From Sedimentisphaerales bacterium (GTDB lineage: Bacteria; Planctomycetota; Phycisphaerae; Sedimentisphaerales; SM23-30), in assembly GCA_963666285.1 (NCBI GenBank), contig OY762711.1: 64,000 bases of DNA; one strand, written 5' to 3'. Positions 13,321-40,526 of this stretch are shown piece after piece. Positions within the stretch are counted from its first letter, which is position 1; each line of letters begins with the position of its first letter. The notes under the pieces are model-generated. The model was not told where the DNA came from and searched no databases. It saw only the letters and a program-made list of their open reading frames with translations. The position numbers and the translations under genes were made by a program.

Positions 13321-15587
13321 TTAATTTTTATCATACACCCTGACATAATCAATATAATATTTATGAGGAAACAGGCTGTCATCAATACCTTTTTGACCGC
13401 CCCATGCTCCGCCAATCGCAAGGTTTAGTATTAAATAATGCGGCTTATCAAACGGCCATTCATTATCTCCGGTACCTTCATTACGAAAAGTAAAATAATG
13501 CTTATTATCAACGAATGTCTCAATCCTGTCATCATACCACTCAATTGCATATAAATGATACTTATCCATACAGGTTGGAACCTTTATAGTAGCACTCTTC
13601 TGTGTGCCGATTACATGATAATAGCTCTTACAGTGAATTGTGCCAACGATAGTCTCCGGATCATAACCAACATTTTCCATTATATCGATCTCGCCGCATT
13701 TCGGCCACCCAACCTGACCAATATTTTTCCCCAACATCCATATCGCCGGCCAGGTCCCTTTCCCTGTTGGCAGCTTTGCCCTTATCTCAAATCTACCATA
13801 AGTCCATTCTTTCTTCCCTGCAGTATGGATACTCGCTGATGTATATTCAGCATTCTCTTTGTACCCCTCTTTTCGTGCCTCAATCAGCAAACTGCCATTC
13901 TCAACACGTGTATTCTCCAGTCTCTGCCTGGTATAATATTGCTTTTCATTATTTCGGATAAAACCAACCTCATGGTTCCACTTCTCAGCATCAGGCAAGC
14001 CCTGATAGTCAAACTCATCATTCCAGCTCAACTTCCACTCAGGATCCTCCGGTTTATTGTAGCCCTTTTCATCACAATGCAATTTTGAATGCAATCTTAC
14101 TTTATTTACCGTATCCCCGCCATTTTGTAAGTAAAACCGGTTTTCCTTGACTCCGGAATCAATTCTATCTGATTTCGTATTATCTGCGGTAAAAACGGCA
14201 CTTGTTAACGGATGCCATATACCATCGATACTCTTCACCCAGCCATTACCAAAACTTGCATTGCGGATTTGCTTGGCACTTTCGCCATTACGCCTGAAAT
14301 CTTCGACAAACGAATAATACCCTTTTAATGGATCGCCAGCGGTTTTTGTCTGGAATGTAGCAAGATGCTTCCAGCCGCTCGTCTCGCTCAAACAAACAAA
14401 AGCTGAGTAAATTGTTGTGTCATTCTCTACCACAGCTTTGACTATACACCTTACAGTCTGGTTCAGCTCCCAATCAGTATAAAACATAGACTTCGCGCCC
14501 GTGCCTTCATTTCCAAACCTGCTTATTTTTACATCATCTCCGGAAAATATAACTTTAACCCGGTTTTCTTCTTGCACCTTAGCTGGATCATTCTGATCAC
14601 CCGGATCCCACACAGAGAAGATTACTACTTTTTTCCCTCCCCATAACTCCTGGATTCCAAAATAGCCGTGATTAAATCCACAAACGCAAAAGTAACTGCC
14701 TGGAACACTTTTTTCAACTGAAACTTCATTATAAAATGCCATACCTTCCGGAGCGTCATACCACAAATGAACACTGCGGGCTGCTCTAGGAAACTCATTT
14801 CCCTGGGCCAAGACATTTGTTACTATTAAAAAACATATAAACAGGAGAATAAACGTATACTTTTGTCGAGTAGGCATGTCGCCTCCTTTCATTAATTTAA
14901 CAAATTCTGAGTTTCATTATATTTTGTGCAAGGAAACGCATGCCCCTCACAGAACCGGACTTGAAGATTTCCCTCATCCGGCTCTTCATTAATGCTCACT
15001 TTGACGGCTACATAAGGCAAAGTAATGTGCCTTGTAGAAGTCTCCGATAGAAGACGCTGTGGAACGTTCATGGTTTCTTCCAGTTCAGTGCCTGGCCAAT
15101 ATCCTGTTTCGCCTTTACACATTAATGCTGACCCCTTCGAGTGCCTCAAACTTCGAAACTCAACAGGCATTACCCTGTTTACTCCTCTACTATGAGTCAG
15201 TCCGACTACCAAAATGCCATACGGCCGCGTCACGGTTTCAGCTCCTTGGCCGCTTCCTTTCGGAGCACTTCGGTTCTCCCAAGTTCCAATGCAGTCAGTT
15301 CGTTTGCCCGCTACGGACTCAGACCCCGGCTCGTCGATATATGCTCGCCGTATTTCGCATATATCGATATTGGCTTCAGGCATATGAAAACCCTGGCCCG
15401 GATGCGATAAGGAATAATTTCGGGGCTCAACACCTTCACTTGCGTTGTGGCTGACAAACTCCTTTCCCGGGGCTTCGTACAGTTCGTTACCTCTCTGCAC
15501 GCCCGGTGCTGTAATGGGCGGGTGGCTAGCCCTTACCCATGCCGGATTGGCCGGCTTGACTACATTAGCTTCGCTTGGCGCTCTCAT
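13321..15587 (-). CDS. Secreted DUF3472-like + GH16 (laminarinase-type) hydrolase, interrupted by a group II intron; exons 15584-15587 and 13321-14864
   Basis: GH16 motif WPAIWMLG..WPKCGEIDIMEN; splicing joins ATGA|AAAAG to give MKKYTFILLFICF signal peptide (515 aa); unspliced RNA has an in-frame ATG at 14877. Confidence 0.85.
14865..15583 (-). mobile_element. RT-less group II intron, copy 1 (719 nt)
   Basis: 5' GAGCG; domain V GAGCCGGATGAGGGAAATCTTCAAGTCCGGTTC (14952-14984, AGC triad); domain VI with bulged A (14871) ending CTCGAC; short DIV closed by CATTAATGT/GCATTAATG; no YADD/RT; identical copy 2955 bp away. Confidence 0.92.
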
Positions 15588-15646
15588 ACTCTTTCCTTAC
15601 CCGGCATAACCAGATGAATTAAAAAATTAAACTTATGGCCAAAATA

Positions 15647-16821: not shown

Positions 16822-18542
16822 TTACTGTCTCGTATTGTTCACCTTGACTGCTTCAATTGTCATATCTTTCCATTCGGATTCAATACCGCGTAAATGATGA
16901 TCGAAAAACTGCTTTGTATATTTAATTGTCTCCGGTCCAAATCCTTGACCGTGCCCTCCGTCTTTTACGGTAATCATTGTACAGTTTATTTTTGCTTTTC
17001 TCAAAGCAGTAATAAATAATTCAGATTGATTATACGGCACCAGCGGATCTTTGGTACCATGAATTATTAAAAATGGAGGATCATCTTTAGTAATATACCG
17101 AATTGGATTCGCAGTAGCAACCTTATCCTTATTCTCTTGTATGGCTCCTCCGATAAGTTCTGATTCCGGCGAATCTGGTGCATCGTGGCTCTGGATCGAA
17201 CCTGCTTTATCCATCTGCAAAAAATCGGTCGGGCCAAAGAAATCTGCAACACATGAAACATGACTCGAAACGTCTTTATATTCTCCTAGTCCCCCATCCA
17301 TAACCGCCGCTCCACTGCTCGTACCCAGCATTGATACCAGGTGGCCGCCGGCTGATGATCCCCATACCCCTATCCTATCGCTATCTAATCCGTATTTATT
17401 TGCATTTGCCCTTATCCAGCGAATGGCAGCTTTACAGTCATGAATTTGTGCCGGCCAAACGGCATCTCCACTTAACCTGTAATTTACTGTCGCCGCGGCA
17501 TAATCTCCTGAAGCAACAAACGGTATCAGCTTTCCGACACTACTGGATTTATCTCCCGCTCTAAATGCTCCGCCATGAACATACACAATTACAGGCAAAG
17601 ACTTTTCTCCTGAATTCTTTGGAATCAGCAAATCTAAACACTGTCTTTCATGACTGTTTTTTAGATAAGGTAAGTCTTTTATGTGTAGAACATTATCGCG
17701 GTTCATCTTATACTGCATACCTCTTTCCGGCCTTTCCCTGTTTTGTTCCTGCTGGCCGAATAGCTGAGCTGCTCCCAAAAATATAACCAGAATCACGATT
17801 ATCTGTCTATTAATATCTTGTCGAGTAGGCATGTCGCCTCCTTTCATTAATTTAACAAATTCTGAGTTTCATTATATTTTGTGCAAGGAAACGCATGCCC
17901 CTCACAGAACCGGACTTGAAGATTTCCCTCATCCGGCTCTTCATTAATGCTCACTTTGACGGCTACATAAGGCAAAGTAATGTGCCTTGTAGAAGTCTCC
18001 GATAGAAGACGCTGTGGAACGTTCATGGTTTCTTCCAGTTCAGTGCCTGGCCAATATCCTGTTTCGCCTTTACACATTAATGCTGACCCCTTCGAGTGCC
18101 TCAAACTTCGAAACTCAACAGGCATTACCCTGTTTACTCCTCTACTATGAGTCAGTCCGACTACCAAAATGCCATACGGCCGCGTCACGGTTTCAGCTCC
18201 TTGGCCGCTTCCTTTCGGAGCACTTCGGTTCTCCCAAGTTCCAATGCAGTCAGTTCGTTTGCCCGCTACGGACTCAGACCCCGGCTCGTCGATATATGCT
18301 CGCCGTATTTCGCATATATCGATATTGGCTTCAGGCATATGAAAACCCTGGCCCGGATGCGATAAGGAATAATTTCGGGGCTCAACACCTTCACTTGCGT
18401 TGTGGCTGACAAACTCCTTTCCCGGGGCTTCGTACAGTTCGTTACCTCTCTGCACGCCCGGTGCTGTAATGGGCGGGTGGCTAGCCCTTACCCATGCCGG
18501 ATTGGCCGGCTTGACTACATTAGCTTCGCTTGGCGCTCTCAT
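16822..18542 (-). CDS. Secreted alpha/beta-hydrolase (esterase), interrupted by a group II intron; exons 18539-18542 and 16822-17819
   Basis: HGGAF, GSSAGG nucleophile, HGTKD, GGHG; splicing joins ATGA|AAGAT to give MKDINRQIIVILVIF (333 aa). Confidence 0.85.
17820..18538 (-). mobile_element. RT-less group II intron, copy 2 (719 nt)
   Basis: Apparently identical to 14865-15583 (same translations in three frames); boundaries ATGA|GAGCG...CTCGAC|AAGAT. Confidence 0.92.
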
Positions 18543-19904: not shown

Positions 19905-20159
19905 CAATCTCACTTTTTTTATTTATTTCAAAAAAAATAAAAATCTATTTGCCAAACCCGCAGGCATGTTCTGTGTTTAACTAATAAGGCTGAGTAATTT
20001 GTTTGTCGATCGGGAATTTATCACCCATTCTTGAATATGTGTGCCACAACATGGCCTTTGATGTCGGGACCACTAATTGCGAAACCCTGGCATAACAACC
20101 TAAAAAATCAGAAAGGAGCATACAACGCGGGCACTACAGGCACCCGCTAAAAAAAATAA

Positions 20160-20320
20160 AGTGACCTCTGGAAATTGCTTTTGATGCGATAGTTTAAGAT
20201 TTTGGTTGCTGACAAGGAACATAAAATCGTGCATATTGGGCTATATTCACTGTTTTATGTGACGCATGTCAGAAGGCAAAAGAAAAACTTGTCGCTCAAA
20301 ATGAATTTTCTGAGGTTGCC
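20160..20320. mobile_element. 161-bp MITE-like element, copy 1
   Basis: Imperfect TIRs GTGACCTCTGGAAATT / AATTTTCTGAGGTTGCC; near-identical copy at 34259-34419. Confidence 0.8.
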
Positions 20321-20449
20321 TTAAGTAATGTAGGTAATATCAGAGCCGCGAGGTGAACCGAGCGGTTTATCTCGGCATAAGCCGATTTAATCAGTTTTCC
20401 GCCTTTGGCGGACAACCTTAGCTTATTTCTTATATCTTATTACTTGTTA

Positions 20450-34186: not shown

Positions 34187-34258
34187 AATTATATAACTCC
34201 TATGATTTTCTAATTTCCCAAAATATTAATCTGAGATTAGCTGACATATTCAACTAAA

Positions 34259-34419
34259 GGTGACCTCTGGAAATTGCTTTTGATGCGATAGTTTAAGATT
34301 TTGGTTGCTGACAAGAAATATAAAATCGTGCATATTGGGATATATTCACTGTTTTATATGACGCATGTCAGCAGGCAAAAGAAAAACTAGTCGCTCAAAA
34401 TGAATTTTCTGAGGTTGCC
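34259..34419. mobile_element. 161-bp MITE-like element, copy 2, with TAAA target-site duplication
   Basis: TIRs GGTGACCTCTGGAAATT / AATTTTCTGAGGTTGCC flanked by TAAA at 34255-58 and 34420-23. Confidence 0.85.
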
Positions 34420-35126
34420 TAAACTGTTATCTTTCTAAACACCTGATCAAAAGAACCGCCAAATTCATTCTTCAAATTTGCAGAAGTATCATTTGCCACA
34501 ATTCTGCCCCTGTTAACAATTACAACACGAGAACACATAGCTTCAACTTCTTCGAGAATATGAGTTGAAATGACAATACATTTTTCTTTTGCCATTTTAT
34601 CTATAAGCATCCTAACCTCATACTTCTGATTAGGATCAAGACCATCTGTCGGCTCATCTAAAATTAAAACGGGTGGATCATGGATAAGACACTGAGCCAG
34701 GCCTACCCTGCGTTTGAATCCCTTTGAGAGAGTCTCAATCGTCTGATGGTAAACTTTTTTTATCGAGCACATGTCAACGACTTTTTCGATTGCAGCCCCC
34801 CTGACATTCCCCTTGATTTCCCGGGCATCACAAACAAAGTTTAGAAAAGATGAAACCGTCATTTCACCATACGCCGGGGCGTTCTCTGCCAGGTAACCGA
34901 GTTGTTTACGTACACCTATGGGGTCTTTTATAATATCATGACCACAGATAGACGCAGTTCCGCTATCAGGAGCGAGAAAACAAGCCAGCATTTTCATGGC
35001 AGTGCTTTTTCCTGCACCATTTGGTCCAAGAAAGCCTAATACCTCTCCCTTGCCAACTTCAAAACTTATACCATCTACGGCCTTTATCGGTCCAAAGCTG
35101 CGTCTAAGGTCATTTACCTTTATCAT
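34419..35126 (-). CDS. GldA-like ABC transporter ATP-binding protein
   Basis: GPNGAGKS, LSKGF signature, ILDEPTDGLDP, STHIL. Confidence 0.93.
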   Translation of the reverse strand: MIKVNDLRRSFGPIKAVDGISFEVGKGEVLGFLGPNGAGKSTAMKMLACFLAPDSGTASICGHDIIKDPIGVRKQLGYLAENAPAYGEMTVSSFLNFVCDAREIKGNVRGAAIEKVVDMCSIKKVYHQTIETLSKGFKRRVGLAQCLIHDPPVLILDEPTDGLDPNQKYEVRMLIDKMAKEKCIVISTHILEEVEAMCSRVVIVNRGRIVANDTSANLKNEFGGSFDQVFRKITV

Positions 35127-35619: not shown

Positions 35620-37047
35620 ATGACTGATAGTGCGAGCATCCAAGATATGACTACAACAGAAAAAAGGCACTGTTTTCAAGCGGGTTTTTTACCCGTCCCG
35701 CTGCAATCTGTTCCCCCTGAAAGCTTACAGGGGATTGAAGTCTTCATCTACACACATCCCACATACAGCCTTTATAAAAGTTGCGGGCTGGAATTTAATT
35801 TACAGGATTACAATCGCCTTATTGAGGCTGGAACAGAACACGTTTACATATCTACGAGAGATCATCAGAAATATTATGACGCTATCGAAAGTTCACTGAA
35901 TGAAATTGTTTCTGATAAGAAGATTGCACTCAAGCAAAAATGCGATGTGCTTTATGCCACAACAATGGCTTTGACCAAGGAAATCACTAAAAGCCCGCCT
36001 GAAGGCAAAACCATCACTAAAGCAGAAAAACTAACCGAAAGTACCATAAAGCTGATATTAAATAATCCAAAAGCGTTTCAATATCTATTTAAAGTATCCA
36101 ATCACGATTTCTTTACCGCTACCCATATGTCTAATGTAAGTATATTGCTGGTTTCTTTTGCGGAAAAAATTGGCATTAGAGATATAAGATTGCTTCATGA
36201 TATTGGGACAGGCGGAATGCTTCATGATATTGGTAAAGTTTTCATTCCAAATGATCTGCTTAATAGTACAGAAAAACTCACAACTGAAGAATTTGACCTT
36301 ATAAAAGGTCACGTCCAAAGAGGTTTGGATCACCTGCGAGAAAAAGCAGATCTATCAGAAAATGTGATTAAACTTGTGGCAGAGCATCATGAAAAAATGG
36401 ATGGTTCCGGTTATCCAAATGCTCTGCAAACTGACGAAATATCAATTTTTGGCAGAATGATCACAATAGTCGATATGTTTGAGGCTATGACATCTGTCAG
36501 ACCATATCGCGACAAGAGCTTCTCTCCGGAACAGGCAATGGATATTATTGCCGAAATGACACCTAAACAGCTGGATGAAAAAGTTGTAAATTCTTTTGTT
36601 CAGTTTATTGACTCCTCTTTACTGGGGATAGAACACCCGGAAGACGATAATGACGACAATAACTATATATTGTCAGCTTTGGGCATAAGCAAAGCTGACA
36701 CTGATAATCCTTCTGGCAGACGCCACAAAAGGTATTATTTCAGAATTAAAACTTCAGTAAGAACAGTTTCAGTAACAAACAAACAATGGAGACTCGGTCC
36801 TGAAAAATCTGTTATTGCTCATAATATCTCGCAAAGCGGCATGGGACTTCTTAGTCCGAATAAGTATGAAATTGGACAAATAATTAGTATTTCGCTCTAT
36901 GTGCCTAAATTGGGAAAAACCATAAACTACTTCGCAAAAATAGTAAGATATATGGACCATACCGATGGATGGTATACTTTAGGTGCTGAATTTGTTAAAG
37001 AAAAAACATATGAGCATGTAAATGAAATCTATATGGCACTAAAATAA
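35620..37047 (+). CDS. HD-GYP phosphodiesterase with C-terminal PilZ domain (paralog 1)
   Basis: LHDIGK, HHEKMDGSGYP, RPYR; PilZ RRHKRY...NISQSG. Confidence 0.9.
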   Translation: MTDSASIQDMTTTEKRHCFQAGFLPVPLQSVPPESLQGIEVFIYTHPTYSLYKSCGLEFNLQDYNRLIEAGTEHVYISTRDHQKYYDAIESSLNEIVSDKKIALKQKCDVLYATTMALTKEITKSPPEGKTITKAEKLTESTIKLILNNPKAFQYLFKVSNHDFFTATHMSNVSILLVSFAEKIGIRDIRLLHDIGTGGMLHDIGKVFIPNDLLNSTEKLTTEEFDLIKGHVQRGLDHLREKADLSENVIKLVAEHHEKMDGSGYPNALQTDEISIFGRMITIVDMFEAMTSVRPYRDKSFSPEQAMDIIAEMTPKQLDEKVVNSFVQFIDSSLLGIEHPEDDNDDNNYILSALGISKADTDNPSGRRHKRYYFRIKTSVRTVSVTNKQWRLGPEKSVIAHNISQSGMGLLSPNKYEIGQIISISLYVPKLGKTINYFAKIVRYMDHTDGWYTLGAEFVKEKTYEHVNEIYMALK

Positions 37048-37116
37048 ATTCCTTTACGCTTTACTTAGCTTCTCAGTTTTTAAATTGAAATAACGCAGTG
37101 CCTTGTTCTTTTTTCA

Positions 37117-37206
37117 TTTTCACTGAATTGTCCTTGTTCCAGCCTTTGCGAATAAAGCTAAACCGTTTTAAGTGCGTCATGTATATATGGTGCGAAGCAT
37201 AAACCG
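37117..37206. repeat. ~90-bp dispersed repeat, copy B
   Basis: Aligns with 19817-19904 with a 2-nt indel. Confidence 0.65.
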
Positions 37207-37330
37207 TACTTTAAGAGAAACATTCAATCCGGCATATATTATCTTTATTTATAGATAGTTACATACATTTCCCTACTTCCTTATTTCGGCCACCACAACA
37301 GATGGTATAATAATCTTTTTCATATTCATA

Positions 37331-37358
37331 TAAAATATTGTTAAAATTCAGCCGATAT
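37331..37358 (+). promoter_or_regulatory. Putative sigma28 (FliA) promoter
   Basis: TAAA-N16-GCCGATAT. Confidence 0.65.
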
Positions 37359-37440
37359 ATCAATGAATTGAAATGATTCTAAAATGTTGCTGAGATAATT
37401 TCATAATGATGATATGTATAGAATTAACATGAGGAAGTTT

Positions 37441-38868
37441 ATGGCAGATTCAGCTGTAATAGAAAAAGGAGAACAAACACATAATAAAAAAAGCTGCGTA
37501 CAGGAAGGTTTTCTGCCTGTGCCGTTAGCATCAGTCCCCCCAGACAGTCTTAACGGACTTGAAGTATATATCTCTACTTCACCTTCCTACAGTCTTTACA
37601 AAAGCAGTGATCTTAAATTTTGTGCTAAAGATTATGAACGTCTTATTAACGCCGGTACTGAATATGTCTATATTGCTACAAAAGACCATCAGAAATATTA
37701 TAACGCCATCGAAGACTCACTTAGCGATATTGTAAAAGATAAAACCATAGCATTAAATAAAAAATGTGAAATTCTATATGCGACAACAATTGCCTTAACA
37801 AAAGAACTTTCTTCTGCTCCTATTGAAGCTAAAAATATAAATAAAGCGGTTAAACATACTGAAAGTACCATTAGCCTGGTATTGAAAAACCCCAAAGCAT
37901 TCCACCATCTTTTCAATATATCAAATCACGATTTTTATACCGCTACCCATGTATCAAACGTTAGTATTATGCTGGTAACTTTTGCCCATAAAATAGGGGT
38001 TAATGATACACAAATCCTCAATGATCTGGGAACTGGCGGACTTCTTCACGATGTCGGAAAAGTATTTGTCCCGCAAGAACTTCTTAACTGCACAGAAAAA
38101 CTGACTCAGGAAGAATTTGAAATCATAAAAAGCCATGTCAAAAAAGGAGTGATATACCTTGAAGAAAATGCTGATTTATCTGAAATCAGCCTTAAACTCG
38201 TTGCCGAACACCACGAAAAAATGGATGGTTCAGGCTATCCCTACGGACTTGAAGGAGAAAACATATCCCCCCAGGGACGGTTGATCGCTGCCGTAGACAT
38301 GTTTGAAGCTATGACTTCTGTGCGCCCATACCGTGATTCCGGTATCCCCACTGAGCAGGCAATGGAAATGATACGAAACATGGCACCCGAACAGCTGGAT
38401 GAAAAAATTGTATGTTCATTCATGCAATTTGTCGAAAATTCCATAAGCGGTAATGATACTCAACAATCAGAACAATCTGATTTCCAGGTACTTGCAGCGT
38501 TAGGGATCATGGAAGGCGGCATAAAAAACCCTTCTGGCAGACGCCACGAACGTTATTTTTTCAGAGTTAAATCAACTATCAGAACCGTCTTCCACCAAAA
38601 TAATACAATATACTATGGTCCAGAACACAATATCATCATGCATAATATATCTCAAAGCGGAATTGGTATTCTTAGCTATCGTAAATTTGATGAGGGGCAA
38701 TTCATTAATATCGGGATAAAAATTCCTGGCAAGGACAGCGAAGAACACTATTTTGCCAAAGTAGTAAGAATAATTGACCATGCTGACGGGTGGTATACTC
38801 TTGGTGCCGAATTTGTTAAAATGAAATCAGCCGAGCAAATAATGGACATATATACACAATTGAAATAA
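37441..38868 (+). CDS. HD-GYP phosphodiesterase with C-terminal PilZ domain (paralog 2)
   Basis: LHDVGK, HHEKMDGSGYP; RRHERY...NISQSG; SD GAGGA before ATG 37441 (ORF open from 37414). Confidence 0.9.
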   Translation: MADSAVIEKGEQTHNKKSCVQEGFLPVPLASVPPDSLNGLEVYISTSPSYSLYKSSDLKFCAKDYERLINAGTEYVYIATKDHQKYYNAIEDSLSDIVKDKTIALNKKCEILYATTIALTKELSSAPIEAKNINKAVKHTESTISLVLKNPKAFHHLFNISNHDFYTATHVSNVSIMLVTFAHKIGVNDTQILNDLGTGGLLHDVGKVFVPQELLNCTEKLTQEEFEIIKSHVKKGVIYLEENADLSEISLKLVAEHHEKMDGSGYPYGLEGENISPQGRLIAAVDMFEAMTSVRPYRDSGIPTEQAMEMIRNMAPEQLDEKIVCSFMQFVENSISGNDTQQSEQSDFQVLAALGIMEGGIKNPSGRRHERYFFRVKSTIRTVFHQNNTIYYGPEHNIIMHNISQSGIGILSYRKFDEGQFINIGIKIPGKDSEEHYFAKVVRIIDHADGWYTLGAEFVKMKSAEQIMDIYTQLK

Positions 38869-38982
38869 TCATTATAATCACTACCATTTATTATTACCAC
38901 AACTGACTGATACAATCATCAAGAACACATATAATATTCTTATTTTTTCGTTTTTTTTACCTGTATTACACCTAAGTTCTTC

Positions 38983-39010
38983 TCAAATTCCACAATCATT
39001 CTACCGATAC
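38983..39010 (+). promoter_or_regulatory. Putative sigma28 (FliA) promoter
   Basis: TCAA-N16-ACCGATAC. Confidence 0.55.
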
Positions 39011-39101
39011 AATATCTAGCTGGTAAAAAAGACTTTAACTTTTTCCAGTGTTAAATATATTGCTACAGATAAACATACCGCAAAGGGAGAACTAAAGATA
39101 T

Positions 39102-40526
39102 ATGCCAGTTGAAACTGCCGTAGATAACTTGCAATTAACAGAGAATAAAAGTTGCATTCAGGAGGGTTACCTACCTGTTCCACTCAAATCTGTACCCCCT
39201 CAAAGCCTTAAAGGACTTGAAGTCTATATTTTTGCTTCTCCTTCCTACAGCCTATATAAAAGTATTGGTTTAAAATTTGAAATCAAAGACCATGAACGCC
39301 TTATCGAAGCCGGTACCGACTACGTCTATATCGCCGTTAAAGATCATAATAATTATTTTGCCGCTATAGAAAATTCTCTTAATAACATCATTAACGATAA
39401 GAAAATAGCTCTACGCAAAAAATGTGAAATTCTATATGCTACTACATTAGCTTTAGCAAATGAAATTTCTCGTTCAAATCCAACAAAAAAAGTTGTCAAT
39501 CAAATAAGAAAAGTAACTGAAAATTCGGTTAAGCTTGTATTAAAAAATCCTAGTGCTTTCAGACATTTATTTTCCATATCCAATCATGATTTCTTCACAG
39601 CAACACATTCCACAAATGTTAGTGTAATGCTGCTCTCTTTTGCATGTAATATTGGTATTTCAGAACCGCAAATACTCAAGGAAATTGGTACCGGAGCACT
39701 TCTTCATGACACAGGTAAAATATTTATACCACAAGATTTGCTTAACTATAAAGAAAAACTCAATGAAGAGCAGCTGGCTACTATAAGAAGCCACGTAGAA
39801 AAAGGTGCAATGCACTTGAGAGCCTACTCAGACCTGTCCGAAGAAATTATCAGAATGACAGAAGAACATCACGAAAGAATGGATGGGACCGGGTATCCAA
39901 AACGGTTAAGAACAAAGCAGATCTCCGTGTATGGAAGAATGTTGGCCATTGTCGACTCTTTTGAAGCTATGACATCCGTAAGACCATACAGAGAAGGTTG
40001 CATGTCTGTAGAACAAGCCATGGACATGATAAACGATATGGCTCCCAGCCAGCTTGATGAGAAAATTGTTGAGTCATTTTGCCGGTTCATCGAATCTAAT
40101 CTTTTGAGCCAAAATGAAGAAATTACACCAAATATTGATTACGGCATACTTAAAGCGCTAGGACTGGCTGAAAAAGATAAGGAAAATCCTTCCGGCAGAA
40201 GACATAGAAGGTTTTATTTCAGAGTAAGATCGTCTCTGCAAATTGTTCGCAGAAAAGATAACAGGTTTCTACTCAGCCCCGAACATCTCATTATTGCCCA
40301 TAACATATCACAAAGCGGCATAGGGTTTCTATGTACCAGGGAATATAATCACGACGACATTATCAGGATTACAATTAATATCCACAAAGATAATAAAAAG
40401 ATTACATTTCTGGCTAAAATTGTTCGGTGCCTTGATCACGCTGATGGCTGGTTCACGTTAGGGGCTCAGTTCATCGAAGAAAAATCCTCTGAAAATATTC
40501 ACGATATCCACTCCAGCTTAAGGTAA
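39102..40526 (+). CDS. HD-GYP phosphodiesterase with C-terminal PilZ domain (paralog 3)
   Basis: LHDTGK, HHERMDGTGYP; RRHRRF...NISQSG. Confidence 0.9.
   Translation: MPVETAVDNLQLTENKSCIQEGYLPVPLKSVPPQSLKGLEVYIFASPSYSLYKSIGLKFEIKDHERLIEAGTDYVYIAVKDHNNYFAAIENSLNNIINDKKIALRKKCEILYATTLALANEISRSNPTKKVVNQIRKVTENSVKLVLKNPSAFRHLFSISNHDFFTATHSTNVSVMLLSFACNIGISEPQILKEIGTGALLHDTGKIFIPQDLLNYKEKLNEEQLATIRSHVEKGAMHLRAYSDLSEEIIRMTEEHHERMDGTGYPKRLRTKQISVYGRMLAIVDSFEAMTSVRPYREGCMSVEQAMDMINDMAPSQLDEKIVESFCRFIESNLLSQNEEITPNIDYGILKALGLAEKDKENPSGRRHRRFYFRVRSSLQIVRRKDNRFLLSPEHLIIAHNISQSGIGFLCTREYNHDDIIRITINIHKDNKKITFLAKIVRCLDHADGWFTLGAQFIEEKSSENIHDIHSSLR

Follow-up and report, generated by a model that had tools for sequence, protein, structure and literature searches.

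A group II intron lineage that targets translation start codons and carries a putative replacement start signal in domain VI

The window analysed here, a 64,000 nt stretch of the Sedimentisphaerales bacterium contig OY762711.1, contains two group II introns that lie one base behind the first codon of a host gene, and the locus raises the question of how such a gene could be expressed when the intron parting it from its own start codon is not removed. Copy 1 (14865..15583, minus strand) and copy 2 (17820..18538, minus strand) were delimited by Rfam matches and by alignment of the copies; they begin with GAGCG, end with AC, are identical across all 719 nt (15583-14865 and 18538-17820) and lack a reverse transcriptase (RT) gene. 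Minus-strand matches to Rfam RF02005 (15550-15314 and 18505-18269) and RF00029 (14986-14865 and 17941-17820) place domains I-IV and V-VI in the window twice. The group II hallmarks were all present, namely the domain I-IV core, GNGYG...AY ends, a domain V (14951..14985, minus strand) with an AGC catalytic triad at 14983-14981 and a 5-nt GAAAU loop, and a bulged A in domain VI. Domain VI and the 3' end of copy 1 occupy 14865..14948 (minus strand), where the helix (14948-14868) has the 81 nt given to it by the first-pass annotation, with the bulged branch A at 14871. Copy 2 had been called alike (17820-17903), as it must be given the identity of the two copies: its domain VI lies at 17903-17820, its spare ATG at 17832 and the native ATG of its host at 18542-18540 (minus strand).

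Exon 1 of copy 1 (15584..15598, minus strand) consists of the native Shine-Dalgarno (SD) sequence AAGGAA (15598-15593) and an ATG (15587-15585) followed by one A. EBS1, UCAUAU (15382..15387, minus strand), is complementary to the exon end (A)UAUGA, that is, to the start codon; a probable EBS2, UUCCUU (15409..15414, minus strand), the position of which was deduced from the fold, is complementary to the host SD. Exon 2 of copy 1 (13321..14864, minus strand) encodes a protein with DUF3472 and GH16 domains, 515 aa if spliced and 518 aa from the spare ATG, and exon 2 of copy 2 (16822..17819, minus strand) encodes a BD-FAE alpha/beta hydrolase of 333 aa if spliced; both have a hydrophobic N-terminus. 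Elsewhere in the window are three diverged tandem gene copies (35662-40246, spacing 1824 and 1658) and a 167-nt two-copy repeat of 95% identity (20158-20324 and 34257-34423). Contigs C2-C4 of the genome (G000) are of near-equal size (65.6, 65.6 and 66.6 kb) and are possibly variants of one plasmid or phage.

A spare SD, GAAAGGAGG, was found in domain VI at 14882..14890 and a spare ATG at 14875..14877 (both minus strand), the ATG lying 13 nt upstream of the 3' splice site in the frame of exon 2. The spacing between the two is short (4 nt), and the host 16S tail, ...GGAUCACCUCCUUUCU, is complementary to the spare SD with a duplex energy of -15.6 kcal/mol. In the predicted fold GGGCAUG (14945-14939) pairs with CAUGCCU (14878-14872) and CGUUUCCUU (14938-14930) pairs with AAGGAGGCG, the latter pairing occupying the spare SD. 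The first-pass annotation had proposed that these two pairings hide the SD and ATG, and the modelling agrees: domains V and VI together fold at -48.7 kcal/mol (z -6.1, 0/200 shuffles as good), and a fold of the whole intron gave the SD and AUG bases a pairing probability of at least 0.9. A scan of the minus strand for promoters and terminators returned no site within domain VI.

The same annotation had placed an SD and ATG in frame with exon 2 at both sites. ATG 14877 is indeed in frame at both, but the insertion phase (ATGA|) is fixed in every copy, so that the spare ATG is automatically in frame at each site and the match at two sites represents a single 1-in-3 event and not two observations. 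The evidential weight for a spare start comes from its conservation in relatives, not from the frame match. A second ATG at 14892 also shares the exon 2 frame, as claimed, but was rejected as a conserved second start, since the three closest of the listed loci outside this genome (L104, L113 and L127) read TTGAAG at that position.

The genome holds eight copies of the intron, 99.6-100% identical, together with a 648-nt variant and two fragments. Each of the eight sits after TATGA and before A, and EBS1-IBS1 pairing with the 5' exon (5-8 bp) was found in 8/8; among the matches listed, an exact 4-nt match between EBS1 and the exon was found in 28/46 introns, with 8 of the misses unparsed. Removal of the intron yields Met-Lys or Met-Asn joined to an ORF of 86-515 aa in seven of the eight copies, and 5 aa in the eighth, so that one copy, like the 648-nt variant, is at a site without an ORF. 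By comparison, 1619 of the 6061 TATGAA sites on the main contig (27%) are open for 80 codons (p 0.0006 against 7/8). The near identity of the eight copies suggests recent spread, and hence mobility, in unrelated genes. No match to the 719-nt query was found in two same-genus and two same-family genomes, a strict domain V pattern matched only its own genome among 401 of the phylum, and viral contigs gave no match to either the domain V pattern or the RT. Uninterrupted orthologs of the two host genes of the window were not found in four kin genomes, where the best hits (42% and 47%) left the N-terminus uncovered. In contigs of four runs there was no joint spanning either intron site and no empty allele, although contigs cannot show absence.

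Two 1929-nt relatives in the same genome (G000:C1:910721-912649 and 5397267-5395339) encode a 443-aa RT, one with the motif YADD and one with YADN. They have a different EBS1 and are located in intergenic repeats, yet keep the SD and ATG of domain VI. G000:C1 also carries a 3' fragment (4809701), the 648-nt variant, which is degenerate (1613560-1614207), and a 50-nt 5' fragment (5748538). The RT-bearing relative, the variant and the fragments for the most part occupy intergenic repeats that are rich in AT and end with TTATGA or TTAAGA.

By a crude hydropathy rule, 6/7 hosts have a hydrophobic N-terminus. The background for this property is 0.60-0.63 at ATGAA-type starts (0.63 for SD plus TATGAA) and 0.34 at starts other than ATGAA; an intron that targets ATGAA will land more often in genes for proteins with hydrophobic leaders. 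Enrichment of exported proteins beyond that due to the target motif was ruled out, 6/7 being compared with 0.63.

To assess conservation, species genomes were scanned with a domain V pattern, which returned at least 115 loci; the pattern was derived from the 719-nt intron, and the sample therefore consists of its kin. Among the matches listed, the 3' end could be parsed in 113 of 118, with an ATG at -13 in 47, at -16 in 52 and at neither in 14; thus 99/113 have an ATG at one of these two offsets, and in none was the nearest ATG at any other offset within 22 nt. The two offsets are in the same reading frame. When reduced to the 80 distinct domains VI among the matches listed, the corresponding figures were 38, 30 and 12, so that homologs, in which the first-pass annotation had proposed to look for the SD, the ATG and its frame, retain an ATG in this frame in 68/80. 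The loss of these signals in homologs, named by that annotation as a refutation, was not observed. The SD was stronger than in shuffled sequence in 66 of the 68 distinct domains VI with an ATG (mean -9.2 vs -3.6 kcal/mol, among the matches listed), and it was kept throughout stems of 49-123 nt with unrelated loops, again among the matches listed. In the 38 stems with ATG at -13 among the matches listed, the 5' partners of the AUG wobble, from C to U in 7 and from A to G in 8; invariance of the AUG itself holds by definition within this group. At this position the 12 ATG-less stems are paired differently, which indicates that the domain VI helix does not need the AUG. Openness of exon 2 was scored over 60 codons in 73 distinct loci with 240 nt available and, among the matches listed, was found in 27/73 in the frame of the spare ATG vs 10 and 11 in the other frames. 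This signal was clear in the -13 group (15/32 vs 2 and 5) and weak in the -16 group (12/41 vs 8 and 6), both among the matches listed.

The spare ATG was associated with the insertion site. Among the matches listed, 41 distinct complete introns came from outside this genome, of which 29 have a spare ATG and lie at a start site, 6 have a spare ATG elsewhere and 6 have neither; introns lacking the ATG were thus found at start codons in 0/6 (nominal p 0.0002). Start-site relatives follow ATG or GTG plus one base, with an upstream SD in 22/29 (among the matches listed). A role of EBS2 as an anti-SD across relatives was not significant (16/29 vs 4/13, p 0.19, among the matches listed). The six with SD and ATG at non-start sites, among the 41 matches listed, were L039 and five archaeal -16 members; the latter (L045, L062, L089, L098 and L099) combine a tight domain VI SD and ATG with non-ATG sites and an altered EBS1. 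Hosts among the matches listed belong to Planctomycetota, Spirochaetota, Fibrobacterota, Bacillota, Deltaproteobacteria and several archaeal groups. A quick tree of 54 RTs, from which RTs failing a motif filter (including most of L177-L232) were excluded, grouped the -13 members (41 rows, ∼24 with the ATG state scored, support 99) and placed the -16 members (3 rows, support 99) beside them. In L047, which is nested in the clade, EBS1 has changed, the target is not a start site and ACG stands where the ATG was lost. More distant relatives (41-45% RT identity), inspected by eye, have no ATG at the -13 or -16 positions. These data, which come from comparison of homologs, make it highly probable that domain VI carries a conserved back-up start.

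Some further arrangements were seen in individual relatives. An unrelated deltaproteobacterial MAG contains six copies of a -16 family intron (L070, L263, L265, L267, L269 and L271), all after SD...ATGA, and the domain VI arm of L070 nearly duplicates its own exon-1 start region. Nested or tandem introns, in which one locus gives two domain V matches or a further intron starts within domain V, were found at L073, L099, L156 and L221.

Opening of the ribosome footprint was calculated to cost 21.9 and 20.7 kcal/mol at the two spare sites vs 11.8 and 7.2 kcal/mol at the spliced native sites; such energies take no account of tertiary structure or of the timing of folding during transcription, and the opening costs are therefore not decisive. 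A predicted cost of ∼21 kcal/mol would make unaided initiation at the spare ATG unlikely. The fail-safe start suggested by the first-pass annotation is accordingly upheld in part: homologs support a replacement start and the predicted folds support its concealment, but at 21-22 kcal/mol the hidden site is probably too costly for ribosomes to enter without help. Compared with 7-12 kcal/mol at native sites, this cost implies that the spare site probably needs a ribosome arriving via a read-through frame, something absent from the first-pass annotation, and such a frame is open in the window element. An ORF of 231 codons without a Pfam match (14892..15587, minus strand) runs from the host ATG across the ribozyme to the stops TAA TGA (14889..14894, minus strand), of which the TAA overlaps the non-conserved ATG 14892, and ends just ahead of the spare SD, 14 nt before the spare ATG. 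Stop-to-start distances of such size permit translational coupling. The frame was free of stops in 0/20,000 shuffles, but one frame of the ribozyme is stop-poor throughout the clade, also at non-start sites (L047 and L061), and the shuffle test therefore overstates the improbability.

Among the matches listed, a related frame had no stop between nt 100 and domain III in 18/46 introns vs 2 and 0 in the other frames. Read-through in the host frame across the clade was ruled out, with 3/26 stop-free over the first 450 nt and a mean of 6.7 stops among the matches listed. In L104 and L072 the frame begins at an SD and ATG in domain I, and 14 and 11 nt, respectively, separate its end from the spare ATG, while in L058, L068, L070 and L255 the stop of the read-through frame overlaps the spare ATG. 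Among the matches listed there were 30 start-site introns, and opening costs are 15.9-22.6 kcal/mol in the six whose ORF of at least 150 codons ends at the spare ATG, compared with 3.6-20.0 kcal/mol in the other 24. The nominal p for opening cost against read-through ORF was 0.0003, an overstatement since the six coupled cases come from about three lineages; L255 is a seventh coupled case (225 codons, opening cost 27.3). The absence of stops between the window element and L104 alone was not significant (P about 0.10). Given the roughly three lineages, this P value and the open frame in some non-start introns, the association of tight stems with read-through is a lead, not proof. That coupling opens the hidden start in the window element is, on our estimate, slightly better than an even chance.

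Related frames also approach the RT in some introns. Four RT-bearing introns (L011, L154, L155 and L157; intron nt about 100-480) have a frame of 126-140 codons that extends over domains I-III, with its stop 2 nt short of the RT start codon. The frames of L011 and L154 open at a domain I ATG, and in L047 the frame overlaps the RT start. Such a frame, stopping near the RT start, may be coupled to RT translation. In L058 (732-2690) and L045 (776-2584) the RT is fused to the ribozyme-crossing frame (652 and 602 aa), and the 652-aa frame of L058 starts at the host ATG and has a stop that overlaps the domain VI ATG.

The targeting geometry, the spare SD and AUG, their predicted pairing, their conservation and the open frame are read directly from the sequence. 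The reading that we prefer, at a probability of roughly 0.6, is of a non-autonomous class-E-like intron that would home to translation starts, carry a replacement start in domain VI and leave its transcript in either of two states. In the folded state EBS1, and probably EBS2, would bind the native AUG and SD while domain VI hides the spare pair, and splicing would rebuild the Met-Lys-... reading frame. In the translated state a ribosome would start natively, traverse the 231 codons, which should unfold the ribozyme together with domain VI, stop 14 nt before the spare AUG and restart there, giving MPTRQ- instead of MK-. We infer that the spare AUG is translated, that this is coupled to the upstream frame and that it and splicing are mutually exclusive. 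In exported hosts the three extra residues would depart with the cleaved signal peptide. Insertion would then be nearly harmless to the host and the intron could spread; the likely benefit is the intron's, the gene being expressed whether spliced or not. For mobility, and perhaps for splicing as well, the intron would use the RT encoded by the 1929-nt relative of the same genome.

The spare start might alternatively be used by ordinary de novo initiation, the 30S subunit catching the SD during transcription or breathing of domain VI, with read-through as a by-product of a stop-poor ribozyme. This would suit the 24 of 30 start-site introns among the matches listed that have no long ORF to domain VI, as their stems are weak (median about 10 kcal/mol) and native-like (7-12), and it would gain from the very strong spare SD of the window element (-15.6) and from the single stop-poor frame found across the clade. 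In the window element itself it has to meet an opening cost of 21-22 kcal/mol, and in relatives the tight stems accompany read-through frames; we consider it unlikely as the explanation here. Less likely still is that the SD and ATG have no use, being part of a purine-rich helix arm that was inherited and may have been captured from the target, with host genes relying on splicing. Retention of the SD over stems of 49-123 nt with unrelated loops, wobble changes confined to the partner strand, loss of the ATG along with retargeting in L047 and the finding that 0/6 complete introns without ATG (among the matches listed) lie at start codons all argue against this, even though the pair persists in introns at non-start sites, the L070 arm nearly copies its own exon-1 start region, and the frame match is one 1-in-3 event to which the shift from -13 to -16 adds only one more.

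The two states are structurally exclusive in the predicted folds, as would be expected of a regulated switch in which temperature, RT supply or translation rate toggles between splicing and internal initiation and so controls host genes. We regard such a switch as the most improbable of these alternatives: both routes would yield nearly the same protein, the copies are 99.6-100% identical and recently spread in unrelated genes, and the two same-genus and two same-family genomes hold no match to the query. Recent spread, near-equal products and the lack of a match in kin fit a selfish element limiting its harm, and not host control.

In bacteria, group II introns are often inefficient at splicing and for the most part stay out of genes. 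The lineage described here enters genes at the first codon and seems to carry its own rescue, which would offer a testable route to residing in expressed genes without splicing. A more general proposal, tentative and in our judgement somewhat short of even odds, is that the lineage is translationally transparent, with the start codon (often with its SD) as target, a replacement start supplied by domain VI and, in three sublineages or more, a ribozyme that doubles as an ORF leading to a locked domain VI, all separately from the IIB1 clade. If this is true, passage of the ribosome would decide between splicing and restart for each transcript, start-codon targeting would be a third strategy of harm avoidance beside terminator and attC targeting, and the lineage would be a natural system for competition between the ribosome and ribozyme folding. 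A practical caution concerns annotation: an N-terminus given as MPTRQ or MSTRQ, for example, can derive from the intron.

In organellar group II introns that have the RT ORF in frame with the upstream exon, domains I-III are traversed by translating ribosomes. L058 resembles these in that its 652-aa ORF starts at the host ATG and continues through the RT; unlike them, the frame of the window element encodes no RT and ends at a domain VI restart signal. For start-codon members of the IIB1 clade, Michel et al. (2007) may have noted a site for ribosome binding and an initiation codon within domain VI, which we think less likely than not. A literature search, which covered few subscription papers, gave no description of an SD and AUG in domain VI or of this lineage.

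The C.te.I1 intron of Clostridium tetani is likewise without an RT and found in exported-protein genes, and 75-95% of its RNA is unspliced; start codons of downstream ORFs have been annotated in its D5/6 motifs, but the part of the account consulted treats them as annotations removed by splicing and describes no SD (PMC3919590). It differs in its alternative splicing, four D5/6 repeats and long exon 1 (PMC3919590, same part). Class E (IIE) introns such as Ac.ma.I1 and Cl.be.I2 share the small ribozyme, the 5-nt domain V loop and an RT of ∼430-450 aa without endonuclease, and neither start-codon targeting nor a domain VI start signal was found in the portions seen of their descriptions (PMC3753933, PMC4244168). 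In class E and F introns EBS2 is dispensable for splicing and has a proposed role in homing, according to the section of PMC3753933 that was seen. The partner RT of the 1929-nt relative (443 aa) has RVT_1 only and lacks HNH; the best-scoring class-labelled RT relative found was that of Ac.ma.I1, class E, at 44% identity, which was linked to its label by organism and a length of 432 aa. In the quick RT tree the only class-labelled reference was of class E and sat on a long branch, and the class E features present, the 5-nt domain V loop and small ribozyme, are both shared with class F. The 602-aa ORF of L045 and class E UA.I6 (602 aa, ANME-1) agree only in length and host group.

Published start/stop-codon introns of the IIB1 (CL1 RT) clade, for example Avi.groEL and EcKTE56.groEL, likewise insert at translation signals, and in the part of that report available those at stop codons bring a substitute stop codon with them, UAA to UAG (PMC12584367). 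The same part describes colonisation of their sites as unknown and leaves an SD or AUG in domain VI unmentioned. It assigns to the clade a subdomain Ia of 300-700 nt, a CL1 RT, with an endonuclease domain in that of EcKTE56.groEL, and proteobacterial housekeeping genes as hosts (PMC12584367). The introns studied here have no subdomain Ia, the Rfam D1-D4 match starting at intron nt 34 and the whole intron measuring 719 nt, and their lineage is found mostly in exported-protein genes of many phyla and of archaea. Judged from these comparisons, the lineage looks class-E-like and separate from the IIB1 start/stop-codon clade.
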